Shown here in pieces: positions 1 through 8,849 of a stretch of DNA of 42,545 bases (positions within the stretch are counted from its first letter, which is position 1; every line of letters starts with the position of its first letter). Source of the DNA: a virus. A program made the position numbers and the translations under genes. Below the pieces are notes generated by a model, which was not told the DNA's origin, did not search any database, and saw nothing but the letters and a program-made list of their open reading frames with translations. Location of the stretch: the UHGV virus genome UHGV-0212520; one strand, given 5' to 3'.

Positions 1-12
1 TTGATTCAGATA

Positions 13-639
13 TTAGCGGCGGCGACGTTCACGGCGTGGTGCTTCATCTTCTTCGTCGTCCTCAAGGTCATTGACGCTTGCAGCGACTTTAGAACCCCCA
101 AACGCTTTACCTTCGCTAACGTATTTAATTGCCAGCAGGTTAACGCCGAGGACTTTGTATTTCTGGCTGAACCAAATTTCAACGCTTACGTTAGCGACGC
201 AGCCGCTGTAAACCTGTTCACCTTCAATCTGTTCACCGTCTACATTGAAGTCCTGCTCTACCTGAGTCTCGCCTTTTTTAGATGTTACAATCAGAGGCTG
301 CTTCTGTGCCTTCGCTTTGAAATAGAATCCTTCCGGGAAGTCTTCAAACGGATTGTCGCGCTCGGCGATGTCCTTAATCGCGCATTTATCCATGTGCTTA
401 CCCTCGCCGTAGTTGGACTTCATCCACTTCTCGGCAGCGGCAGCACCTAACGCTTCTTCGACTACAGCGTAAACGGTGTCGTATAGAGCATCGATTTGAG
501 CATGGTCGGACGGCAGGATAATCGTAGCGCTGTACTGCCCTTTAGTGATTGAGCCATCGTCGTTTTCACGGTCTTTTTCGCGTTCGAATACGTTAACCCA
601 TGCAGTGTTTACTTTACGCAGATTCAGTTTAATGCCCAT
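13..639 (-). CDS. Putative ssDNA-binding protein (DUF2815-like), acidic then basic C-terminal tail
   Basis: 208 aa ORF; N-terminal pattern KVNTAWVNVFERE resembles DUF2815 phage SSB-like proteins (from memory, unverified); C-terminus DLEDDEEDEAPRRERRRR; sits at the start of a minus-strand replication operon downstream of promoter 694-722. Confidence 0.45.
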   Translation of the reverse strand: MGIKLNLRKVNTAWVNVFEREKDRENDDGSITKGQYSATIILPSDHAQIDALYDTVYAVVEEALGAAAAEKWMKSNYGEGKHMDKCAIKDIAERDNPFEDFPEGFYFKAKAQKQPLIVTSKKGETQVEQDFNVDGEQIEGEQVYSGCVANVSVEIWFSQKYKVLGVNLLAIKYVSEGKAFGGSKVAASVNDLEDDEEDEAPRRERRRR

Positions 640-693
640 CTTAATTTCTCGCTTTTCAGTTTACTCCGGGAAGCTGCCCGGCCAGTGATTAGA

Positions 694-722
694 ACTATAA
701 TAGCTAACTATTCAGGTGTCAA
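694..722 (-). promoter_or_regulatory. sigma70-like promoter, family A copy 1 (TTGACA-N17-TATAGT on minus strand)
   Basis: Minus strand reads TTGACA (717-722), 17-nt spacer cctgaatagttagctat, TATAGT (694-699); near-identical blocks at 3855-3884 and 39831-39859. Confidence 0.55.
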
Positions 723-955
723 CCCTTCCAGCCAGTTATTTTCTCAACTATAGTTAGGTATATGTTAGGCCACTCTAAATTCCACACCCATTTAATTTCC
801 TTCGTCTGGCCCAGTTGCTCGGGGTCTACCGTTTCATACTTAATCGCAACGTAGACCACGAGTGGAAGAAGGATAATTAGAAGCGGCACTAACATAGCCC
901 AGTAAGCAACAAATGCCACAAACCCACCAAATACCCTGAACGTTTTACGAATCAT
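719..955 (-). CDS. Small membrane protein (one strong TM helix)
   Basis: ATG at 955 overlaps the stop of the upstream exonuclease gene (ATGA), with GAGGAGGA as RBS; hydrophobic stretch FGGFVAFVAYWAMLVPLLIILLPLVVYVAI. Confidence 0.45.
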   Translation of the reverse strand: MIRKTFRVFGGFVAFVAYWAMLVPLLIILLPLVVYVAIKYETVDPEQLGQTKEIKWVWNLEWPNIYLTIVEKITGWKG

Positions 956-2217
956 TCCAAATCCTCCTCTGTTACCTGATTCCACTCAGGACGTTTGTCG
1001 TCTGCCGTTGCCACACATGGCGCACCCGGCTTACGGGTAATAAAGTCTTTCAGTTCTTCTTCCGGCACAACTTTAACAGCTTCGGTCGGCGTCATGAGCA
1101 CTTGCTTCATTAGTGCTATACCATACTTGCCAGCCACTTTCTCCGCGTCTTTCCACGCACGATTACCTGGGCGACCTTCAACCAGTTTGTACCCCGGAAC
1201 TTTCTTACCGGAATGCAGTGCAGATGTCATCGCTTTCTCAACCTTGTCGATGTGCTGGCGCAACAATGGCAACTTCTCATACTCAGTTACGAGTTGCTCC
1301 GGCGTCAGTTCCAGCACAAAGTCGTCTTCAAGTTCTTCCACCAGCACCGCGTTAACCGTCTTTGTACGCGATGCGCACTGTTCAGAGAACCTACACCACT
1401 GACAGCCATCGACCGACGGCTTGAAGTCCGACGCTTTCAGGTTCTTCTTACCGCGGAAATAGGCATCAAGGGCTAACAGTGCTCGTTTCTGCGCAAACTT
1501 AGCGAACAGTTCCAGACCTTCAACTGAGATGTCCCACTCCGACGCACCACCCGCGTAGGGCTGGAAGATAACCAGACGAACTGTTGTTATGTTATAACGT
1601 CTCTTAAGTCTGCGATAAACGCCGAGAGCGTAAAGCATAAGCTGCTTGTTTTCTTTCGCTTCGACACGATGTCGTCCCGTTTTCAGGTCACCGATAATTA
1701 GCATGTGCTCGTCGGTGTTAGCCAGCTCCTGTACGGCAACGAGGTCAGCCGTTCCGAACGTCTGTAGTTCTTCTTGCCGTCCGCCAGGGCTATTGATGTA
1801 CCCCGGATGCAATACCTCAGTAAGATTGACGCGCATCTCGATCTTGGCGTAAGTGGCTACATCGATAATCGCTTTGCAGTAGTCAGTGTACTTGCGAACC
1901 TGCTCAATCATGTCTGCCGTAATCAGTACCGCGCCTTTCATCGGACTTATTAGCGCCTTAATCTGGCCTTTACCCTCATCCAGCACGTAAGCACCGACTT
2001 CGCGCTCTAACGGCAACGCGGTGCCTTTGATGTACTGGTTTAGGTGCATCTCAGCTATTGTGTGCATTGCCGTACCTAATACGGCGGCTTTACCGGACGT
2101 GTTAGGGATATCTTTTTCACAGGCCAGTGATGCGGCGCAACTTAGCCACTTTTTAGCGCCTGACGGCGACAGTAAGGCGTGCACATCATTATTGCCGCCG
2201 CGTTCTTTTAAAATCAT
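952..2217 (-). CDS. PD-(D/E)xK exonuclease, Cas4/RecB-nuclease-like with Fe-S cysteine cluster
   Basis: 421 aa; N-terminal Cys (LSCAASLAC) plus C-terminal C-x2-C-x5-C (CQWCRFSEQC) typical of Cas4/AddB-type nucleases; GDLKTG candidate active-site segment; RBS GGAGAG; ends in TEEDLE. Confidence 0.7.
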   Translation of the reverse strand: MILKERGGNNDVHALLSPSGAKKWLSCAASLACEKDIPNTSGKAAVLGTAMHTIAEMHLNQYIKGTALPLEREVGAYVLDEGKGQIKALISPMKGAVLITADMIEQVRKYTDYCKAIIDVATYAKIEMRVNLTEVLHPGYINSPGGRQEELQTFGTADLVAVQELANTDEHMLIIGDLKTGRHRVEAKENKQLMLYALGVYRRLKRRYNITTVRLVIFQPYAGGASEWDISVEGLELFAKFAQKRALLALDAYFRGKKNLKASDFKPSVDGCQWCRFSEQCASRTKTVNAVLVEELEDDFVLELTPEQLVTEYEKLPLLRQHIDKVEKAMTSALHSGKKVPGYKLVEGRPGNRAWKDAEKVAGKYGIALMKQVLMTPTEAVKVVPEEELKDFITRKPGAPCVATADDKRPEWNQVTEEDLE

Positions 2218-2561
2218 CGTAAACTCTCCAAATACAAGTTTAATGCTTGTAACTGTTCTTCTGTAGGAATGAAAGAATCATCACGATGCAAGTCACTTAA
2301 CTGTTGCAGCATTCCGGCGAACTGACGTCTTGCGTCAACAGATTCCATGTGATGTTTTTCACTTTTATATACTAGTGTTTTCGGGTAATCATCAAGCCTG
2401 CCAGACGATTTATTCACTCTGAGAACCCGAGCTTCGTGTGCAATGTGGATATACTTTCTCCCGTTTTGTAGCACAGTAGCTACGCCACTGTTCTTTCTGC
2501 GGTCGCCGACGGTGTAAACCTTGTCACCGCTGCGCAAATTAAGCCACCATTTATCCGTCAT
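2214..2561 (-). CDS. Hypothetical protein
   Basis: ORF in operon with ATGA overlaps on both sides; start moved to ATG 2561 (RBS GGGAGA) from the track's upstream alternative start. Confidence 0.5.
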   Translation of the reverse strand: MTDKWWLNLRSGDKVYTVGDRRKNSGVATVLQNGRKYIHIAHEARVLRVNKSSGRLDDYPKTLVYKSEKHHMESVDARRQFAGMLQQLSDLHRDDSFIPTEEQLQALNLYLESLR

Positions 2562-2830
2562 ACCCTGTTCTCCCACTGGTCAATTAAATGACGAGTCTTA
2601 TGTTCGCAATGCATAGCCCAGCCATACATCGACTCGAAGACATAAAAGTCAGGTTTGGCGAAAGTCGTGCGCTTAATCTGCGACACATGGCGGCCTATAT
2701 CTTTAGGCCGTGGTACTTTGCCTAAGTACGCCATCTCTTCCATCTGGTGCGAACCGGACGGCGCTCGCAACAGCCATAGAGCCTCTGTGTTATCCCGCCT
2801 GTCTACGGCGCGGTAGAGTTGGTAAATCAT
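2558..2830 (-). CDS. Hypothetical protein
   Basis: 90 aa ORF, ATG with RBS AGGAGA, translationally coupled to neighbours. Confidence 0.5.
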   Translation of the reverse strand: MIYQLYRAVDRRDNTEALWLLRAPSGSHQMEEMAYLGKVPRPKDIGRHVSQIKRTTFAKPDFYVFESMYGWAMHCEHKTRHLIDQWENRV

Positions 2831-3114
2831 TTCTTTGTCTCCTGCATTTTAAGGAAGACAATCATAGCGGCGCGGAGAGGGTTTTCGTGCGTACTTTTGG
2901 TGAACGATGCCGAGTGATACGCCCTATACGTAAACGTATGTCGGTTAACCGTAACGCATTCAATTGATATGTGATTATCAATTATTACAGGCCATGCATC
3001 AGATGGGTTGTTGCAGTAGTCTTTGGCCTTAAACGAATTCAATCCTGAAATTTGCATAACCTCTGCGTGCACACGGCAGTTAATTTCAAAATCGCTCATA
3101 GCTTCGTATTTCAT
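2827..3114 (-). CDS. Hypothetical protein
   Basis: 95 aa ORF in minus-strand operon, overlapping stop/start with downstream gene. Confidence 0.5.
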   Translation of the reverse strand: MKYEAMSDFEINCRVHAEVMQISGLNSFKAKDYCNNPSDAWPVIIDNHISIECVTVNRHTFTYRAYHSASFTKSTHENPLRAAMIVFLKMQETKK

Positions 3115-3129
3115 ATTTCCGACCCTCAG

Positions 3130-3152
3130 TTAAAGCGGCCCGAAGGCCGCGG
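3130..3152 (-). other. GC hairpin (gcggcc-cgaa-ggccgc) between genes; possible attenuator or processing site
   Basis: Perfect 6-bp stem with a 4-nt loop at about 3133-3148; only a weak T-tract downstream on the minus strand. Confidence 0.3.
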
Positions 3153-3157
3153 GATAA

Positions 3158-3658
3158 TTATTCTTCTTCGAAATACTTGTTCTTGATTGCCGTAAGGCGT
3201 TCCAAGTACTCAGCAAGGTCTTCGTCTTTAATCGCGGCAATCTTCATCTTCTTGCCAGTGAACTCTTCCAGCAGTTCGTCAGAATCGTCGCATGCGGCGT
3301 CGCTAGGACCTTCGTTAATCGCGTCGTCGATGGCCTGAATCTGGTCACGAAGAGACTGGTAATCGACTTCTTCTTTCACTTCTTCCGGTTCTGGCGTTGG
3401 TTCCTCTACTTTAGCTTTACGCGGCTTGCGTTTCGGCTTCTCTTCTTCTGTCGGTTTAGTGTCGACGATGTCTTCACCTTCGACTGGGATTTCTTTTGTT
3501 TCTTCTTCTGCACATTTGGCTACCGCTTCTTTGGTATACACTACCGTCTCTATTTCCAGAGGCTCGGCAACCTGAACAACTTGTTTTGCACTATTCGCAG
3601 CAATCAGTTCGTGTGCAACTACGAAACGTTCCAGTAATTTTAAAAATTGTTCTAACAT
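3158..3658 (-). CDS. Highly acidic protein with short basic patch (function unknown)
   Basis: 166 aa, very E/D-rich (net charge strongly negative by eye) with internal KPKRKPRKAK; RBS AGGAGA. Confidence 0.55.
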   Translation of the reverse strand: MLEQFLKLLERFVVAHELIAANSAKQVVQVAEPLEIETVVYTKEAVAKCAEEETKEIPVEGEDIVDTKPTEEEKPKRKPRKAKVEEPTPEPEEVKEEVDYQSLRDQIQAIDDAINEGPSDAACDDSDELLEEFTGKKMKIAAIKDEDLAEYLERLTAIKNKYFEEE

Positions 3659-3673
3659 TTGTTTCTCTCCTGT

Positions 3674-3823
3674 TTATTTATACTTAACGGTTTTAACTAA
3701 CTGGCCTGTTGCTTTGTCGAAGAAGCCAACGCGATTGTTGCTTACTCGATATCGTGCGGTTTCTTTAGTCCCAAATGCGATATCAAGGCCTAACAAAATC
3801 TTTGCTTTGCGATTATTGGACAT
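3674..3823 (-). CDS. Small hypothetical protein (49 aa), first gene after promoter A2
   Basis: ATG at 3823 with strong RBS GAGAGGAGAGAAAC; not in ORF track (<60 aa); translation MSNNRKAKILLGLDIAFGTKETARYRVSNNRVGFFDKATGQLVKTVKYK. Confidence 0.35.
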   Translation of the reverse strand: MSNNRKAKILLGLDIAFGTKETARYRVSNNRVGFFDKATGQLVKTVKYK

Positions 3824-3854
3824 TTGTTTCTCTCCTCTCGTTTGGTATGGGCTA

Positions 3855-3884
3855 ACTATAATAGCTAACTATTCATTGTGTCAA
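3855..3884 (-). promoter_or_regulatory. sigma70-like promoter, family A copy 2 (TTGACA-N18-TATAGT)
   Basis: Plus-strand block aactataatagctaactattcattgtgtcaa is near-identical to the 691-722 block; divergent from the HTH gene at 3949. Confidence 0.5.
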
Positions 3885-3948
3885 TGGGCTTTTCTAAAAT
3901 AATTAATATGGTACTATTCACATATCAACTGACTAAGGAGTAACTGAC

Positions 3949-4164
3949 ATGCAACCATCTGAACTAGGCATCCGTGTAGAACAACGCCGAAAAGAACTCG
4001 GCATCTCCCAGCGCCGTCTGGCTGTCCTGGCCGGTGTTTCCCAGGGCGCGATTAATCAGCTGGCTCTCGGTGTAACTCAGGACGTCCGCCCGGCAACGCT
4101 GTTTAAACTGGCGGAAGTGCTGCAAGTAGACGCCAAGTGGCTGGCGTTTGGTGAAGGGGCTTAA
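3949..4164 (+). CDS. XRE/Cro-like helix-turn-helix transcriptional regulator
   Basis: 71 aa; HTH signature LGISQRRLAVLAGVSQGAINQLALG; RBS AAGGAG 8 nt upstream; lone plus-strand gene embedded in minus-strand early region, convergent with primase-helicase. Confidence 0.7.
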   Translation: MQPSELGIRVEQRRKELGISQRRLAVLAGVSQGAINQLALGVTQDVRPATLFKLAEVLQVDAKWLAFGEGA

Positions 4165-4180
4165 CGCCCCTTTCTTTTTA
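4153..4180 (+). terminator. Intrinsic terminator overlapping the stop codon of the HTH gene
   Basis: ggggc-ttaac-gcccc hairpin followed by tttcttttt. Confidence 0.5.
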
Positions 4181-4181
4181 C

Positions 4182-6449
4182 CTATTCCAAATCCTCCTCT
4201 GTCACCACCAGCATTTCATTCGGTTCGTATATTGTCTTCGGTATTTTGTTGTCCGTTATCCGGGTGTTCAGCCTGTAACGGCCCGGTATTATCTGATTGT
4301 TTTCGTCTGTTCCAGGTACAAGATACCCGGCCTCAACCATTTTCTTAATCTTCCCGCGTTCTATGGCTTCTTTGGAGTTAAACGCCTTCGCGTTGGGGTC
4401 AGACTGTGCCAGCTTATTCGCTGCGGCCACCGTGATACCTTCGTTGCCGTTGTAGGTTCCTTCCGCCAGTTCAAACGCTGCCAGTATCGTGGCTTCTGAA
4501 CTGTTGACGGCGTTCTCTACGGTTTTACGTACATTTTCTTTACCTTCCTTTGTCAGCCCTTCTTCGCGCTCTTTCTCCTCGTCAGTCTTGAACGGCTCGA
4601 AGCCCCACGGCATCAGCACAAGCGCCTTGTGCGGCTCAGGCAGGTCGAGGTTTACTATTGTGCCGTATTCCTCTGTGTTACCCAGGAACTCAACTGCACG
4701 GTACTCTTTCGGTGGCGGCGCTTCACGGAACTGTACCGACTCCAGCACCATGCCAACTGTCTTCTGTTGCGGCCCGTGCTTAAATTTCGAGTGGTATACG
4801 TTTATCTGTCTGTCGGTAGCGCGTTCGATTGTCAGTTCCACGTCGACGCCCGCGTACAGCGCCCCACTACCGCGGGCTTTCTTTCCACCTTTAGGTGTGT
4901 GGTGGACAACGCCTACCGCAGCTTTAGTTGCATCACGCACTTCTTTCAGGATGGCGATAACTTTACCCATGCCGATTGCCGTTGATGAGCTGTTCTCGTC
5001 GAACTTATCAATCGTCAGAGCCAGGGTCTGGTTGAGGGTGTCGAACGCAACCATCCCAATCGGCTCGTCGCCAGCAGTTTCACGCATTATCTTAATCAGG
5101 CTTTTCAGTTTTCCGACTTCACCCATATCGATGACGTGTACATAATCTTTACCCTCAACGCCGTATTTAGCCGCGAGTGCATCGATACGTGTACGTGTGG
5201 CTGCGCCACCCTCGCCGTCGATATAGAAATGGTGGCAACGCTGGGTGTCAGCCCCCGCAAACCGGTATCCGGTGGCGCTGAGGTACATCATCCCCAGCGT
5301 ATAGAACGATTTGTACGTGCCAGATTCCCCGACGATATCCCAGATACAATCCGACGGCATGTACCCTTCTACGACGAAATCAGCCTTTACCGGGTCCGGC
5401 AGCTCGTCCTCCTCTGAGTCATCCTCGTCTTCCAGGTCGTCCAGGCTGCATGAAACAGATTCACGCGCGCCCCAGCCAATAGCCTCCGCGACTTCACTGA
5501 ACGGCAGACCAGTCGCATCGCACGCGTACTTCCACACCTCTTTCGGTGCCATGCCTTCGGTCGCCGTAATGTCGGTGTCGTGAATCATGGTTACGTTCGG
5601 CGCTTCGTAGCCTTCGCGCGGGAAGCACAGCAGGAAGTCGTCCGGGCGCGGTGTCGGGTCGCTGTAGTTCTCTGCATGTTCCGGTGTAGCTGGCATCTTC
5701 AGACCGCGGGGTGTCATGACGCCGCCGTACTCAAACGCCAGTGCCTCGAACGCGTCTGTAAACGCGGTGCGCAGTTCTTCCGGTATCTGGTAATCCGATG
5801 CGCTGCTCACCTCGTAATCCGGGGCGCCTTCCAGTAATTCGTCCGGGTCAATCAGGTCGTTGCGGCGCGACCAGATAACAGTAGAGCCTACCGGCGGCAG
5901 GTACATCGGTTGCGAAAGGGTGAAACCGCTGCGGTCGGCACCCATGCCTTTGAAGAAGTGCTCAAGCAAGCCATGACGAACACGGATGACGTCACCACCT
6001 TCGACTGGGCGGGCCAGCGGCATGACGACACGGAACCGCGGCGACTCATCGTTATGTGATGCCGTGGTGTAGAGGCACATAGCCCGTCGGCTGCGCTTAA
6101 CCAGGCACACCGCTTCCTGATACTCTTCCGGCGTTGCACTGTCGAAGTCAAGATACGCTAGTGACGATTTGCTTACAGACGCGTCACAGCGGTAAAAGAA
6201 GCCTTTACGCGCCCGCTTAAGGTCCCCGGTTTCCGGGTCTTTTACGGTGCTGTGCGTAGAGTCGCACGCAGCGGTGATATACCCCGGCGCGGTCTTAGGG
6301 TTAATCCCGCCACGGACAGCATCAAGCGGCTGGATTAACTCTTTCAGGTCGTCCAGTGTTGCTGTGTGTGTGGTTCTGACGTTTATATCCTTTTTCTCTG
6401 CCCGCGCGTTGCGACGAGACCACGAGTAGGATAAAATTACATCGGACAT
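4182..6449 (-). CDS. Putative replicative primase-helicase (C-terminal RecA-fold/RepA-like ATPase)
   Basis: 755 aa; C-terminal region GESGTYKSF ... VVHHTPKGGKKARGSGALYAGVDVELTIER resembles RepA/DnaB-like ATPase helicases; N-terminal domain unassigned; RBS GAAGGA; ends in TEEDLE. Confidence 0.6.
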   Translation of the reverse strand: MSDVILSYSWSRRNARAEKKDINVRTTHTATLDDLKELIQPLDAVRGGINPKTAPGYITAACDSTHSTVKDPETGDLKRARKGFFYRCDASVSKSSLAYLDFDSATPEEYQEAVCLVKRSRRAMCLYTTASHNDESPRFRVVMPLARPVEGGDVIRVRHGLLEHFFKGMGADRSGFTLSQPMYLPPVGSTVIWSRRNDLIDPDELLEGAPDYEVSSASDYQIPEELRTAFTDAFEALAFEYGGVMTPRGLKMPATPEHAENYSDPTPRPDDFLLCFPREGYEAPNVTMIHDTDITATEGMAPKEVWKYACDATGLPFSEVAEAIGWGARESVSCSLDDLEDEDDSEEDELPDPVKADFVVEGYMPSDCIWDIVGESGTYKSFYTLGMMYLSATGYRFAGADTQRCHHFYIDGEGGAATRTRIDALAAKYGVEGKDYVHVIDMGEVGKLKSLIKIMRETAGDEPIGMVAFDTLNQTLALTIDKFDENSSSTAIGMGKVIAILKEVRDATKAAVGVVHHTPKGGKKARGSGALYAGVDVELTIERATDRQINVYHSKFKHGPQQKTVGMVLESVQFREAPPPKEYRAVEFLGNTEEYGTIVNLDLPEPHKALVLMPWGFEPFKTDEEKEREEGLTKEGKENVRKTVENAVNSSEATILAAFELAEGTYNGNEGITVAAANKLAQSDPNAKAFNSKEAIERGKIKKMVEAGYLVPGTDENNQIIPGRYRLNTRITDNKIPKTIYEPNEMLVVTEEDLE

Positions 6450-6474
6450 GTTGTATTTCCTTCAGCAAGTAATT

Positions 6475-6502
6475 TGGCCCCGGCGCTCTAACGTCGGGGC
6501 TT
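6475..6502. other. GC hairpin gccccg-N-cggggc with T-tract on plus side
   Basis: Inverted repeat at about 6477-6500 followed by tttcttttatt on plus strand; lies between two minus-strand genes. Confidence 0.3.
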
Positions 6503-6506
6503 TCTT

Positions 6507-6740
6507 TTATTCCAGGTCTTCTAAAGTAGCGGTCATTCCGCGAACTTCTGCAACGGCACTATATTTCCCACCAACATTTTTCACGACACCGGACTTAACC
6601 AGCACCTTCAACGACCCTTCAATAATGGCGGAACTATAGTACTTAAAATAACTACGGCGCAAGTCGATAACGCTGCACGACCCTTTTTTACGTGTTAACG
6701 AAACTACTGCCGTGAATACCCGTGACTGGAACTCGGTCAT
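6507..6740 (-). CDS. Hypothetical protein ending in TATLEDLE
   Basis: 77 aa ORF; ATG overlaps the stop of the upstream AlpA-like gene (ATGA); C-terminal LEDLE tail resembles the EEDLE tails of exonuclease and primase-helicase. Confidence 0.5.
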   Translation of the reverse strand: MTEFQSRVFTAVVSLTRKKGSCSVIDLRRSYFKYYSSAIIEGSLKVLVKSGVVKNVGGKYSAVAEVRGMTATLEDLE

Positions 6741-6907
6741 TTTACATTCTCCTTAATCCACGCTTCCACTTTCTCCGGGTCAAACGTACCTGGTTGCCGG
6801 CGGCCCATAATGCGAATACAACAATCCGGGAACTTCCCACTCTTTAACCAGTTATTCAGCGTGCGACGAGTAACCCCGATACGCTCAGCTACCTCATTCT
6901 GTGTCAT
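6737..6907 (-). CDS. AlpA/Xis-like small HTH DNA-binding protein
   Basis: 56 aa; MTQNEVAERIGVTRRTLNNWLKSGKFP matches the AlpA-type HTH pattern; RBS AAGGAG; not in ORF track (<60 aa). Confidence 0.5.
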   Translation of the reverse strand: MTQNEVAERIGVTRRTLNNWLKSGKFPDCCIRIMGRRQPGTFDPEKVEAWIKENVK

Positions 6908-7046
6908 CTTTAATCTCCTTAATTGTTTCCCGCGCGAACGCTGTAGCTGTGCCGTATTTATTGGGGCAGTATCGGCTCTCGTTATGTCCGCTAAACCATG
7001 CTTCTATAAGCAACTCTTTCAACTGTTCTTCTGTCAAAGTAACCAT
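6894..7046 (-). CDS. Small hypothetical protein (50 aa), first gene of the early minus-strand operon
   Basis: ATG at 7046 with RBS GAGGG; located immediately downstream of the promoter at 7079-7107. Confidence 0.35.
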   Translation of the reverse strand: MVTLTEEQLKELLIEAWFSGHNESRYCPNKYGTATAFARETIKEIKDDTE

Positions 7047-7078
7047 TCTCAAACCCTCATTATCAGTTAACGAAACCG

Positions 7079-7107
7079 AGTATACATTGCGAATAATGGG
7101 AAATCAA
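7079..7107 (-). promoter_or_regulatory. sigma70-like early promoter (TTGATT-N17-TATACT on minus strand)
   Basis: Reverse complement of 7079-7107 gives TTGATT, 17-nt spacer, TATACT; faces the operon starting at 7046. Confidence 0.45.
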
Positions 7108-7394
7108 ACATAATCGCACCTATTGACATTATGAAAATCTTCGTTTAAGGTGCTTCTATATCTTAGTTACTTTGATTCCTGTTCACCTTGTAATACCCGC
7201 TTGAAACGCAGCTGCGCCAAAGCGCAAGCGAAGTGTTAAGCGGCAGATTACTGAACATATGAATTATAGTAACTTTCCTTCCTTAGTATCTCCGGTTGCC
7301 CTGGGCAAGCTCTATTCTCATCGGCAGCATATCTCTTAAGTATCTGATTTTCTTAAAGTGCCGTAGATTCGCAACCGTAAAAATGTAACGATTA

Positions 7395-7425
7395 TTGGGC
7401 AGGCCTTAAGGCCTGCCCTTTAGTT
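7395..7425 (+). terminator. Strong hairpin (gggcaggcc-ttaa-ggcctgccc) with downstream T-tract inside the large intergenic region
   Basis: 9-bp perfect stem at 7397-7418 followed by tttagtt; no annotated upstream plus-strand gene. Confidence 0.4.
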
Positions 7426-7490
7426 ACCAAGTAATAAGAATAAAGGCACAACCTTCCCTGAAGAATCACAACGGCAACGTAACTATTCTC

Positions 7491-7519
7491 TTGCACACCC
7501 CAACATAATAGGATACTAT
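7491..7519 (+). promoter_or_regulatory. sigma70-like promoter, family B copy 1 (TTGCAC-N17-TACTAT)
   Basis: TTGCAC 7491-7496, spacer accccaacataatagga, TACTAT 7514-7519; spacer and flank conserved with 8821-8849 and the minus-strand copies at 19594-19622 and 28174-28202. Confidence 0.5.
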
Positions 7520-7553
7520 TCGCTTATCGGAACGAGACAGAGGAGCGAGGGTT

Positions 7554-7742
7554 ATGTTTAAGAAGGGTCAGTTGGTCCGTAGTAAAAAGTCTGGATGTTT
7601 ATACTCCGTATTTTCCACCAACAACAGAGGCAGTGCCGCCATTTGTAAACTTCGCAATGTATTTACTGGCGGTCATGCAACTGTAAGCGCGGAATATTTA
7701 AAACTCATCGGCAACAATTTTAAATTCAAAGGGGAGAAGTGA
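7554..7742 (+). CDS. Hypothetical small basic protein
   Basis: 62 aa ORF, ATG with GAGGAG RBS; first gene after promoter B1. Confidence 0.5.
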   Translation: MFKKGQLVRSKKSGCLYSVFSTNNRGSAAICKLRNVFTGGHATVSAEYLKLIGNNFKFKGEK

Positions 7743-8283: not shown

Positions 8284-8481
8284 ATGGGTGAGTGGATTAG
8301 GTGTAGTGAGCGGATGCCAATGGCGTGCCGTGACGTAATAATAACCGACATGGATATGGTTTCCAGAGTGGCGTGGTTCAACGATAGAAATGATGCCTGG
8401 TATGTTACCGGGGTTGGGTGGTTTTCACGTGATGAGGTGACTCACTGGATGCCGTTGCCCGAGCCGCCATCGCTGGCGTAA
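8284..8481 (+). CDS. Hypothetical protein, possibly DUF551-like
   Basis: 65 aa; C-terminal THWMPLPEPP resembles the DUF551 phage domain (from memory, unverified); RBS GAGGTG. Confidence 0.4.
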   Translation: MGEWIRCSERMPMACRDVIITDMDMVSRVAWFNDRNDAWYVTGVGWFSRDEVTHWMPLPEPPSLA

Positions 8482-8482
8482 C

Positions 8483-8518
8483 AGGTGGTGTAATAGGTGG
8501 TGTAATAGGTGGTGTAAT
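8483..8518. repeat. Three perfect tandem copies of the 12-mer AGGTGGTGTAAT
   Basis: aggtggtgtaat repeated at 8483-8494, 8495-8506, 8507-8518, followed by a partial copy aggccaatagg. Confidence 0.85.
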
Positions 8519-8550
8519 AGGCCAATAGGTTACTATTTGGCTTTGTGTCT

Positions 8551-8585
8551 TACGCTGCTACACAGCAGCGTATCATTTTTCTCAT
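8551..8585 (+). terminator. Hairpin (acgctgc-tacaca-gcagcgt) followed by T-rich tract; possible terminator
   Basis: 7-bp stem at about 8552-8571 then atcatttttctcattttt. Confidence 0.35.
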
Positions 8586-8642
8586 TTTTGTTCTATTTCA
8601 TGAAATGCAACAATCGAAGCTACTATTGCGGGAGATGCAACA

Positions 8643-8813
8643 ATGAAACCGAATGACATCGTAACCTGGACCGGTAGAAACGGAGAAAAGCGATTCGGGC
8701 TTATTGTTGCGTCAGACGGCAACAAGTACCGTGTTATGCGATGGCGTCAGTGGGCGCGACGCCCGAGGTACTGCTGGATTAGCGGCGAACGATTATCGTT
8801 AAAACACCAATAA
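8643..8813 (+). CDS. Small hypothetical protein (56 aa)
   Basis: ATG 8643 with RBS GGGAGA; basic, Trp/Arg-rich. Confidence 0.4.
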   Translation: MKPNDIVTWTGRNGEKRFGLIVASDGNKYRVMRWRQWARRPRYCWISGERLSLKHQ

Positions 8814-8820
8814 AATTTAC

Positions 8821-8849
8821 TTGCACAGTAAGATAGAATAGGCTACTAT
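8821..8849 (+). promoter_or_regulatory. sigma70-like promoter, family B copy 2 (TTGCAC-N17-TACTAT)
   Basis: TTGCAC 8821-8826, spacer agtaagatagaataggc, TACTAT 8844-8849. Confidence 0.5.

Follow-up and report, generated by a model that had tools for sequence, protein, structure and literature searches.

The virus genome UHGV-0212520 (42,545 nucleotides (nt); this whole stretch of DNA is called the window below) is the near-complete sequence of a lytic E. coli siphophage of Kagunavirus type (Guernseyvirinae), and its largest gene-free stretch carries what we propose to be the gene for a structured non-coding RNA. The explanation that we favor as a whole, at a probability of roughly 55%, is a modular gene for a structured RNA of about 270 nt, whose 5′ rod is recognized by a small protein of the same gene cassette and which thereby gates rightward transcription. 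For the part of this explanation that concerns the RNA itself, we consider it probable that a functional structured RNA is encoded on the plus strand here. The order of the elements argues for a gene for such an RNA: a promoter with its predicted start about 7 nt before the rod, the rod itself, then a linker, hairpins and a terminator. As for structured non-coding RNAs in general, we find compensatory substitutions (in domain 1), a defined strand and no conserved reading frame. The elements of the predicted RNA and its promoter are as follows.

7158 to 7425, plus strand: predicted non-coding RNA of about 268 nt, with both ends predicted, no conserved open reading frame (ORF) and no Rfam family.
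7123 to 7151, plus strand: P1, rightward promoter of the RNA unit, with -35 TTGACA (7123-7128), a 17-nt spacer and -10 TAAGGT (7146-7151).
7165 to 7274, plus strand: domain 1, a rod of 110 nt; independent folding of every homolog gives the same rod.
7165 to 7171 with 7268 to 7274, plus strand: helix P1 of the rod, AGUUACU paired with AGUAACU.
Next in the rod, plus strand: helix P2, UGAUUC paired with GAAUUA.
7180 to 7185 with 7252 to 7257, plus strand: helix P3 of the rod, UGUUCA paired with UGAACA, then a 4-nt bulge.
7190 to 7194 with 7247 to 7251, plus strand: helix P4 of the rod, GUAAU paired with AUUAC (family pattern GUAAN/NUUAC).
7275 to 7295, plus strand: pyrimidine-rich linker UUCCUUCCUUAGUAUCUCC, near-invariant and predicted from alignments to be single-stranded.
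7296 to 7308, plus strand: small hairpin UUGCC-CUG-GGCAA, from RNAalifold and pair counts.
7322 to 7363, plus strand: domain 2 hairpin, CGGCA (7322-7326) paired with UGCCG (7359-7363) and, inside it, UUAAG (7336-7340) with CUUAA (7352-7356), with the conserved loop UAAGUAUCUGA.
7348 to 7430, plus strand: constant 3′ module A, which includes the terminator and is common to phages with a wholly different 5′ domain (ST20, fEg-Eco19 and Bas72).
7397 to 7425, plus strand: intrinsic-terminator-like hairpin, GGGCAGGCC-UUAA-GGCCUGCCC then UUUAGUU, recognized by scan, palindrome and conservation.

A preliminary description of this DNA had called positions 7047-7553 its largest non-coding region, about 500 base pairs (bp) without credible ORFs, and this description holds. 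The gap is bounded by leftward start codons (ATG at 7046 or TTG at 7052) and a rightward ATG at 7554, and the sole ORFs inside it encode 26-34 amino acids (aa). A conserved small ORF, named at the time as a finding that would speak against a non-coding region, was looked for in 12 homologs and not found: each of the six frames contains 2-10 stop codons in all 12, and the longest open stretch sits at a different place in each genome. Substitutions in the gap fall evenly across codon positions (16-26 per position modulo 3) and thus show no codon periodicity, while the flanking helix-turn-helix (HTH) gene, which serves as a positive control, has an excess at third positions (for example, 5/6/19). 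That the gap is the largest of the genome is supported indirectly by the fully annotated relative Bas73, where the equivalent gap measures 503 bp, far above the next (about 180 bp), if the annotated gene Bas73_0055 is discounted.

This gene, a 106-aa hypothetical protein on the minus strand (1861-2181 of the Bas73 locus L002, corresponding to about 7199-7523 of the window), overlaps the RNA and is, beyond the lack of annotated genes, the one observation in favor of a missed small protein gene or a packaging (pac/cos) signal in the gap. Its frame is broken in the window, in ZCEC5, in Jerseyviruses and in most relatives, no frame of the gap is conserved, and the call is probably spurious. Packaging, which the preliminary description had offered as one of three functions, fares no better, as the distance to the terminase genes is 7 kb and the region has no repeat or terminal signature. 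We regard either possibility as hardly credible. Different small ORFs are annotated at the equivalent region of other phages as well (K53_047 in Kenya-K53, Bas72_0055 and Bas72_0056 in Bas72).

The gap is also well conserved at the nucleotide level. More than 440 genomes of the collection carry the region, and 355 phage records match the 1.2 kb around it, the best being the E. coli phages ZCEC5, EF2-1, Bas73 and K1ind1 (92-95% identity). Identity in the gap itself is 92-94% in close Kagunaviruses and 75-79% over about 430 nt to Salmonella Jerseyviruses. The adjacent helicase-primase gene is less conserved than the gap in the latter comparison, at 68% nucleotide and 58% amino acid identity. The literature that was searched contains no description of a non-coding RNA or of a replication origin for Guernseyvirinae.

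The structural evidence is carried by domain 1. In its apical helices the sequence is wholly different between lineages and complementarity is always kept, the pairs seen being CCGCUUGA/UUAAGCGG, UGUUUAACCC/GGGUUAAACA, CCGCC/GGCGG and CUUAGCG/CGUUAAG. A plain alignment of the homologs already suggested compensatory changes; MAFFT with RNAalifold over the whole region, in which the variable apex is misaligned, yields only 2 covarying pairs. A covariance model of the rod (R1) was seeded on 16 Jerseyvirus sequences alone and then run against all loci. It recovers the Kagunavirus copies, and its sole match in the window is at 7163-7313 (51.9 bits, E 1e-11); it finds no match in the distant helicase relatives Dhillonvirus SSL-2009a and PNS1. 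In the resulting alignment 95.3% of cells are paired, compared to 25-50% in a control with the partners slid, and double compensatory changes occur at 21 of the 44 pairs (120 cells). The covariation score is 0.308 versus 0.108 in shuffles, and none of 500 shuffles scores as well. For the whole predicted RNA, the minimum free energy is -92.5 kcal/mol and the fold z-score is -5.6 on the plus strand versus -3.6 on the minus strand.

The strand of the fold can also be read from its wobble pairs. Domain 1 contains 66 G·U but 2 A·C cells when read on the plus strand, and this imbalance indicates that the folded strand is the plus strand and excludes a symmetric, double-stranded protein-binding palindrome. 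One-sided changes in domain 2 and the small hairpin likewise turn A-U into G·U. These observations bear on the possibility that control is exerted at the DNA level only, with operators for the two DNA-binding-type proteins encoded alongside (HTH56 and p77, described below), promoter upstream elements, and inverted repeats that are protein-binding palindromes. Such an arrangement would suit the local recurrence of GTAAC/GTTAC and AGTATC motifs, and conservation that extends beyond the hairpin to the region upstream of the second rightward promoter, P2. It cannot explain apical helices that are hypervariable and always complementary, nor a 66:2 excess that needs one specific folded strand, and we consider it very unlikely. 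The AGTATC motif (7285, 7339 and inverted at 7512) shows no genome-wide enrichment, with 18 occurrences versus 15.2 expected; within the P2 promoter family, its complement matches just the copy at 7491-7519. A single copy of what we take to be the phage P4 alpha iteron (TGTTCACC) lies at 7180-7187 inside helix P3, where Jerseyviruses have TGTTTCAC, and we regard it as a chance match.

P1 fits a promoter for this RNA in position and conservation. Its -35 hexamer matches the consensus at 6/6 positions and its -10 hexamer at 3/6, which places it below the scan threshold. The sequence CCTATTGACA is invariant, and Jerseyviruses show TGTAAGTT, an extended -10 with a TG extension. A rightward sigma-70-like promoter is also present at this position in all three alternative alleles of the 5′ region. 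Transcription from P1 would start near 7158. The remaining promoters of the gap and their relatives elsewhere in the genome are the following.

7079 to 7107, minus strand: leftward early promoter, a scan hit, with -35 TTGATT (7107-7102), a 17-nt spacer and -10 TATACT (7084-7079).
7491 to 7519, plus strand: P2, second rightward promoter, TTGCAC-17-TACTAT, which drives the genes from 7554.
7491-7519 (plus), 8821-8849 (plus), 28202-28174 (minus) and 19622-19594 (minus): four-copy promoter family TTGCRCA-N10-AATAGGNTACTATTC.

The gap had been described beforehand as a divergent promoter hub, and rightly so. Both hexamers of the leftward promoter are invariant in 16 phages (Kagunavirus and Jerseyvirus homologs), and this promoter drives the 52-aa ORF, HTH56, p77 and the helicase-primase gene. 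The rightward TTGACA that had been noted with a weak -10 is P1, whose 17-nt spacer and TAAGGT are conserved. P2, also proposed earlier, falls below the scan threshold, yet the genome has three more copies that are nearly identical to it. These four promoters may form a co-regulated, perhaps middle, class; P1 and the leftward promoter resemble ordinary sigma-70 promoters and differ from the four-copy family. Scan counts are near chance (4 promoter-like sites versus 2.7 expected, 4 terminator-like sites versus 1.3), and the promoter and terminator sites are credible because they are conserved, not from consensus scans by themselves.

At the other end of the unit, positions 7397-7418 form a perfect 22-nt palindrome with a 9-bp stem (8 G-C pairs) and a 4-nt loop, followed by TTTAGTT. 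This is the 9-bp-stem hairpin with T-tract that had been placed at 7395-7425, and it is conserved. A GC-rich stem-loop thus stands directly before a U-tract, as in intrinsic terminators, with a tract that is short and interrupted. The hairpin is kept in relatives with one compensatory change (C-G to U-A), and its stem can be extended by pairing of GUAAC (7386-7390) with GUUAC (7422-7426). By inspection, the minus-strand reading of 7397-7426 gives the same extended palindrome (GUAAC...GUUAC) followed by AUUUUUAC. The hairpin could also stop leftward transcription and so insulate the RNA unit and the rightward operon from each other in both directions. The earlier expectation of a plus-strand transcript with no gene agrees with a conserved plus-strand structured RNA that shows strong covariation; the hairpin had been taken for an orphan, and the 110-nt rod at 7165-7274, which is the chief element, had been overlooked.

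The 3′ half (small hairpin, domain 2 and terminator) is 96% pairable overall. Domain 2 is 97-100% pairable and nearly invariant, with one-sided wobbles as its only changes, so that the predicted fold is compatible with structure and not proven. In the small hairpin, U-A becomes U·G in Jerseyviruses, a pairing that is tolerated on the plus strand only. Module A is 89-93% identical to Jerseyviruses and 96-99% identical among Kagunaviruses, including those with alternative 5′ alleles. Jerseyviruses have another 3′ module (B), a paralog of module A that stands either after it or in its place. Their gaps measure 600-1000 bp in the loci L005, L009 and L012, where modules A and B stand in tandem with TGCCGnAGATTC in common, and recombination between the two would give rise to the B-only phages phi135, ER15 and BPS11Q3. 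Two IMG/VR contigs (L030 and L135) carry domain 1 (96% identical), and their equivalent of 7349-7460 is replaced by about 105 nt that are neither A nor B.

The B-only loci bring in another explanation, in which the element is a purely cis-acting leader of the rightward operon (a stabilizer, an RNase III site or an attenuator) with no separate RNA and no protein partner. Where the U-tract terminator is missing, P1 transcripts must run into the genes, and the RNA there would be a leader and not a separate transcript. In addition, sequence inspection shows that the small-hairpin arm UUGCCC could alternatively pair with the terminator 5′ arm GGGCAG, and a long irregular rod, which is a typical RNase III substrate, would by analogy suit processing by this enzyme. 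The antiterminator pairing spans just 6 bp, however, and is not found in the alternative alleles. A full promoter of the four-copy family stands between the element and the first gene, so that the genes need no P1, and the terminator module is strongly conserved and common between alleles. We therefore find a leader of this kind rather improbable, and retain the reading of a separate RNA.

Searches against known families returned nothing to which this RNA could be assigned. The whole window has no match at the gathering threshold among the 4227 models of Rfam 15. Permissive E-values bring up sbrA (24.3 bits against a gathering threshold of 45, covering the terminator hairpin only) and ctRNA_p42d (16 bits), and six related loci give nothing real at gathering or permissive thresholds. 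A search of 5,426 complete E. coli genomes with the 3′ module found no match. Among 185,579 bacterial and archaeal species (one genome each) the sole real match of this module is a contaminating Jerseyvirus contig; a match in Kuenenia was dismissed as a chance 19-mer within a coding region. An old Rfam call (PMC5217580) and the GC-rich stems had raised the idea of a CRISPR-repeat mimic, that is, an RNA anti-CRISPR. No CRISPR-DR model matches the Jerseyvirus and K1ind2 loci at E-values up to 5, and the resemblance is limited to a 6-bp GC stem. A small RNA acting in trans as an antisense to phage mRNAs was likewise rejected, as the best duplexes of three conserved segments equal those of shuffled controls in a phage-wide scan that excluded the RNA locus. 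A scan for tRNA and tmRNA genes found none in the whole window. We regard the predicted RNA as a new family within a general kind that is already known, the structured non-coding RNAs of phage early regions, with an unusual allelic link to a small winged-helix protein.

This link emerges from the Kagunaviruses K1ind2, ST20, fEg-Eco19 and Bas72, in which the R1 model has no match. These phages have a rightward promoter at the same place; the 225-295 nt after it are likewise non-coding and rich in hairpins, with a different sequence. ST20, fEg-Eco19 and Bas72 then rejoin an identical 3′ module that includes the GGGCAGGCC hairpin. The 5′ part thus occurs as at least four unrelated alleles, while the 3′ terminator module is common between alleles. 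Each 5′ allele goes with one protein encoded at the position of p77, a one-to-one correspondence that holds in about 36 loci whichever helicase N-terminus or 3′ module is present. The proteins concerned and their neighbors are listed here.

6507 to 6740, minus strand: p77, a basic 77-aa winged-helix protein (phrog_5169), which occurs with domain 1.
Paired with the K1ind2 allele: a diverged phrog_5169 member of 91 aa.
Paired with the ST20 allele: a protein of 149 aa.
Paired with the fEg allele: an unrelated, acidic protein of 96 aa.
6737 to 6907, minus strand: HTH56, a 56-aa HTH_17/Xis-like DNA-binding protein (Pfam HTH_17, E 2e-7; phrog_66), between p77 and the promoters.
4182 to 6449, leftward: helicase-primase of 755 aa.

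Counts over the whole collection match this pairing: of about 117 such records with the region, 46 of Kagunavirus type contain domain 1 and 47 contain p77, one of these being a Jerseyvirus. In fEg-type phages the intervening HTH gene is kept at about 85% identity and both flanks are replaced. The structure model of p77 (pLDDT 89) is a winged helix. Clustered at 50% identity, its homologs among 1.84 billion representatives amount to just 3 clusters, which confines the protein to this phage group, and no Pfam family matches it. The nearest folds are generic and include both DNA binders (LexA, IclR and the N-terminal domain of T4 MotA) and RNA binders (SelB-SECIS and Z-alpha). Gene-level RNA-seq data for a Kagunavirus place an HTH-domain gene in the early gene set (PMC12645636).

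The same allelic pairing would fit a transcription-activated replication origin. Under this explanation P1 transcription opens the duplex, the rod, formed in the RNA or in the displaced plus DNA strand, would signal loading or priming, and the protein encoded at the position of p77 would recognize the origin. Initiator and origin alleles classically co-vary. The region adjoins the replication genes of a T7-like replisome, the wobble asymmetry on the plus strand fits a hairpin in the displaced non-template DNA strand equally well, and cumulative GC skew has its minimum at 7-8 kb. This minimum, an inflection that the preliminary description had proposed to check, carries no independent signal because it coincides with the switch in gene orientation; skew tracks gene orientation, and a minus-strand gene block elsewhere flips it too.

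Other hallmarks of an origin, the second function suggested at the outset, were sought and not found. The region contains no iterons or multi-copy direct repeats and no tandem repeats, DnaA-box-like sites are not enriched genome-wide (50 versus 66 expected), and there is no marked AT-rich unwinding element, the lowest GC content (30%) being over promoters only. A transcript ending at an intrinsic terminator is, moreover, released and not kept as a primer. Finally, the 5′ allele does not co-vary with the N-terminus of the helicase-primase, its primase domain. K1ind2 and ST20 combine a 93-94% identical N-terminus with a different 5′ allele, whereas Jerseyviruses combine a 57% identical one with the same 5′ allele. 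Taken together, these results make an origin unlikely in our view, and of the three functions originally offered (origin, packaging and non-coding RNA) only the last is supported. In Bas72 (L139) and fEg-Eco19 (L138), the N-terminal approximately 350 aa of the helicase-primase are unrelated to those of the window, and the C-terminal helicase is 79% identical, which from sequence comparison is a domain swap inside the replication protein.

In the mechanism that we envisage for the non-coding RNA, host RNA polymerase would start at P1 immediately after infection, back-to-back with the leftward early promoter. The transcript would consist of the 110-nt rod, the pyrimidine-rich linker and two smaller hairpins, and would stop at the GC-rich hairpin and U-tract at 7397-7425, the rightward genes being served by their own promoter at 7491-7519. 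The rod would be an allele-specific recognition element for the small protein of the same cassette, here p77. Bound to nascent or free RNA, p77 would set the balance, for transcription from a strong early P1, between stopping at 7397-7425 and read-through into the rightward operon, so that the logic would be that of lambda N/nut with different parts. We hold this p77-gated termination only tentatively, as one possible way for the parts to work together.

Several points weigh against the overall explanation or limit it. We infer that the RNA is made, where its ends lie, that p77 binds it and what it does, and the start, end and existence of the RNA rest on sequence motifs, among them a P1 -10 hexamer that is weak at 3/6 matches and a terminator U-tract that is short (UUUAGUU). 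Because the model fitted the covariation alignment to the structure, the counts are biased upward, although independent folds agree. The 3′ half is nearly invariant, so covariation neither supports nor refutes its fold. The U-tract terminator is entirely missing from six B-only loci of Jerseyvirus type, of which three belong to named phages and three to viral contigs. The allele pairing could be plain physical linkage within one mosaic block, and the acidic 96-aa partner of the fEg-type allele is unlike a nucleic-acid binder, which weakens a general model of cognate binders. The fold matches of p77 are not significant (best E 0.013). Lastly, the leftward transcript has no nut-like counterpart; by inspection, its 5′ untranslated region of about 26 nt is without comparable structure.

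In its proposed mode of action, the RNA would come closest to promoter-proximal elements of early phage operons (nut, put and the P4 CI leader), from which it differs in size and architecture, and it is a member of none of these groups. In lambda, P22 and phage 21, the boxB RNA hairpins of the N/nut system work with N proteins that are specific to each allele. As in that system, the rightward early transcript has a promoter-proximal structure ahead of a terminator, the divergent leftward early operon encodes a small basic protein, and protein and RNA element are co-varying specificity alleles that are swapped as mosaic modules. An N/nut-like module is marked by allele-specific pairing between a promoter-proximal RNA element and a small protein made early, and the approximately 36 loci do display such pairing. 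The differences are also clear. The rod measures 110 nt and boxB 15 nt, no boxA-like element was seen and none was looked for, no site occurs in the leftward transcript, and the phages here are strictly lytic. In addition, p77 is predicted to be a folded winged helix, whereas N is an arginine-rich peptide, and binding and antitermination are proposed here by analogy.

The HK022 put elements are cis-acting, factor-independent antiterminator RNAs of about 70 nt with two stem-loops, which need no phage protein. The RNA described here resembles them as a structured RNA just past an early promoter and before terminators that acts as RNA. It differs in having one long rod with further hairpins and in allelic variation that is tied to a protein gene; such variation is unexpected for a put-type RNA because these RNAs contact the conserved host polymerase. 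The immunity leader of phage P4 offers a comparison in length and layout, as an untranslated, structured, promoter-proximal leader of about 300 nt that ends in terminators, gives an RNA setting allele-specific control of early transcription, and belongs to a genome encoding a primase-helicase. P4 is temperate, and its CI RNA pairs with complementary seqA/seqC repeats of the same leader. No convincing internal complementary repeat was seen here by inspection and a repeat scan, with no dedicated search, and the P4 leader lies upstream of the replication genes, whereas the RNA here is divergent from them.

Other known systems are more distant. The T7 primary origin and ColE1 RNA II share a strong promoter beside a T7-like replisome module and a structured downstream transcript, whereas the present locus has no AT-rich tract, ends in an intrinsic terminator and has a variable part that does not co-vary with the primase. 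Lambda OOP, P22 sar and the T4 RNAs C and D are similar as short, autonomous non-coding units of early regions that use host polymerase. OOP and sar are both cis-antisense to their neighbors, whereas nothing is encoded opposite the RNA here, and there is no Rfam similarity.

The surroundings of the gap follow a simple layout. Genes from 1 to 6907 run leftward and include a T7-like replication set (Pol A, a gp2.5-like single-stranded DNA-binding protein and the helicase-primase), and rightward genes begin at 7554 and continue onward. Beside the gap, a 137-bp insertion at 6908-7043 with a 50/52-aa ORF (phrog_20928) is positioned precisely at the HTH start codon, so that it takes over the ribosome-binding site of the HTH gene; it is found only in the window, ZCEC5 and EF2-1. 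A 16-nt repeat occurs near module boundaries, as CAAAGTAACCATTCTC at 7035 and CAACGTAACTATTCTC at 7475.

Further to the right, a tandem 12-mer (TGGTGTAATAGG, 4 copies, 94% matches) at 8474-8521 starts at the stop codon of the ORF at 8284-8481. It is more iteron-like than anything in the gap, but it is not conserved, being missing from most relatives, in which similarity resumes at 8523. A second non-coding stretch at 8523-8660 is conserved in about 445 Guernseyvirinae genomes. It contains a hairpin at 8552-8571 (ACGCTGCT-ACAC-AGCAGCGT) with a T-rich tail, which is probably the terminator of the first rightward operon, and a TACTAT-type -10 at 8621. In phage fEg-Eco19, the linear record stops at the position that corresponds to 8597.

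Among Salmonella and E. coli phages, Jerseyviruses and Kagunaviruses are some of the most often isolated, and they are used in biocontrol, in therapy and as synthetic-biology chassis. The largest empty stretch of their genomes is annotated inconsistently, with nothing or with spurious ORFs such as Bas73_0055, and annotators gain here a real feature together with a covariance model. The gap is not a neutral insertion site, which calls for caution from genome engineers. With two promoters, a terminator, a single RNA and a 77-aa protein, it is a compact and testable system for the early transcription of lytic siphophages, in which the four interchangeable 5′ alleles, each with its protein allele, are natural swap experiments performed by evolution.

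A further, quite speculative proposal is that the rod and the divergently encoded small protein form an allele-specific RNA-protein pair that serves as a self/non-self identity module in strictly lytic phages. Specificity of antitermination and immunity has so far come mainly from temperate lambdoid and P4-type phages. If the proposal is true, each lineage would activate or shield the rightward early transcription of its own kind alone, or would exclude co-infecting relatives with another allele. Specificity of antitermination or immunity would then be conferred by a protein together with a long RNA, and the module would add both a new RNA family and a new family of RNA-binding winged-helix proteins (phrog_5169).

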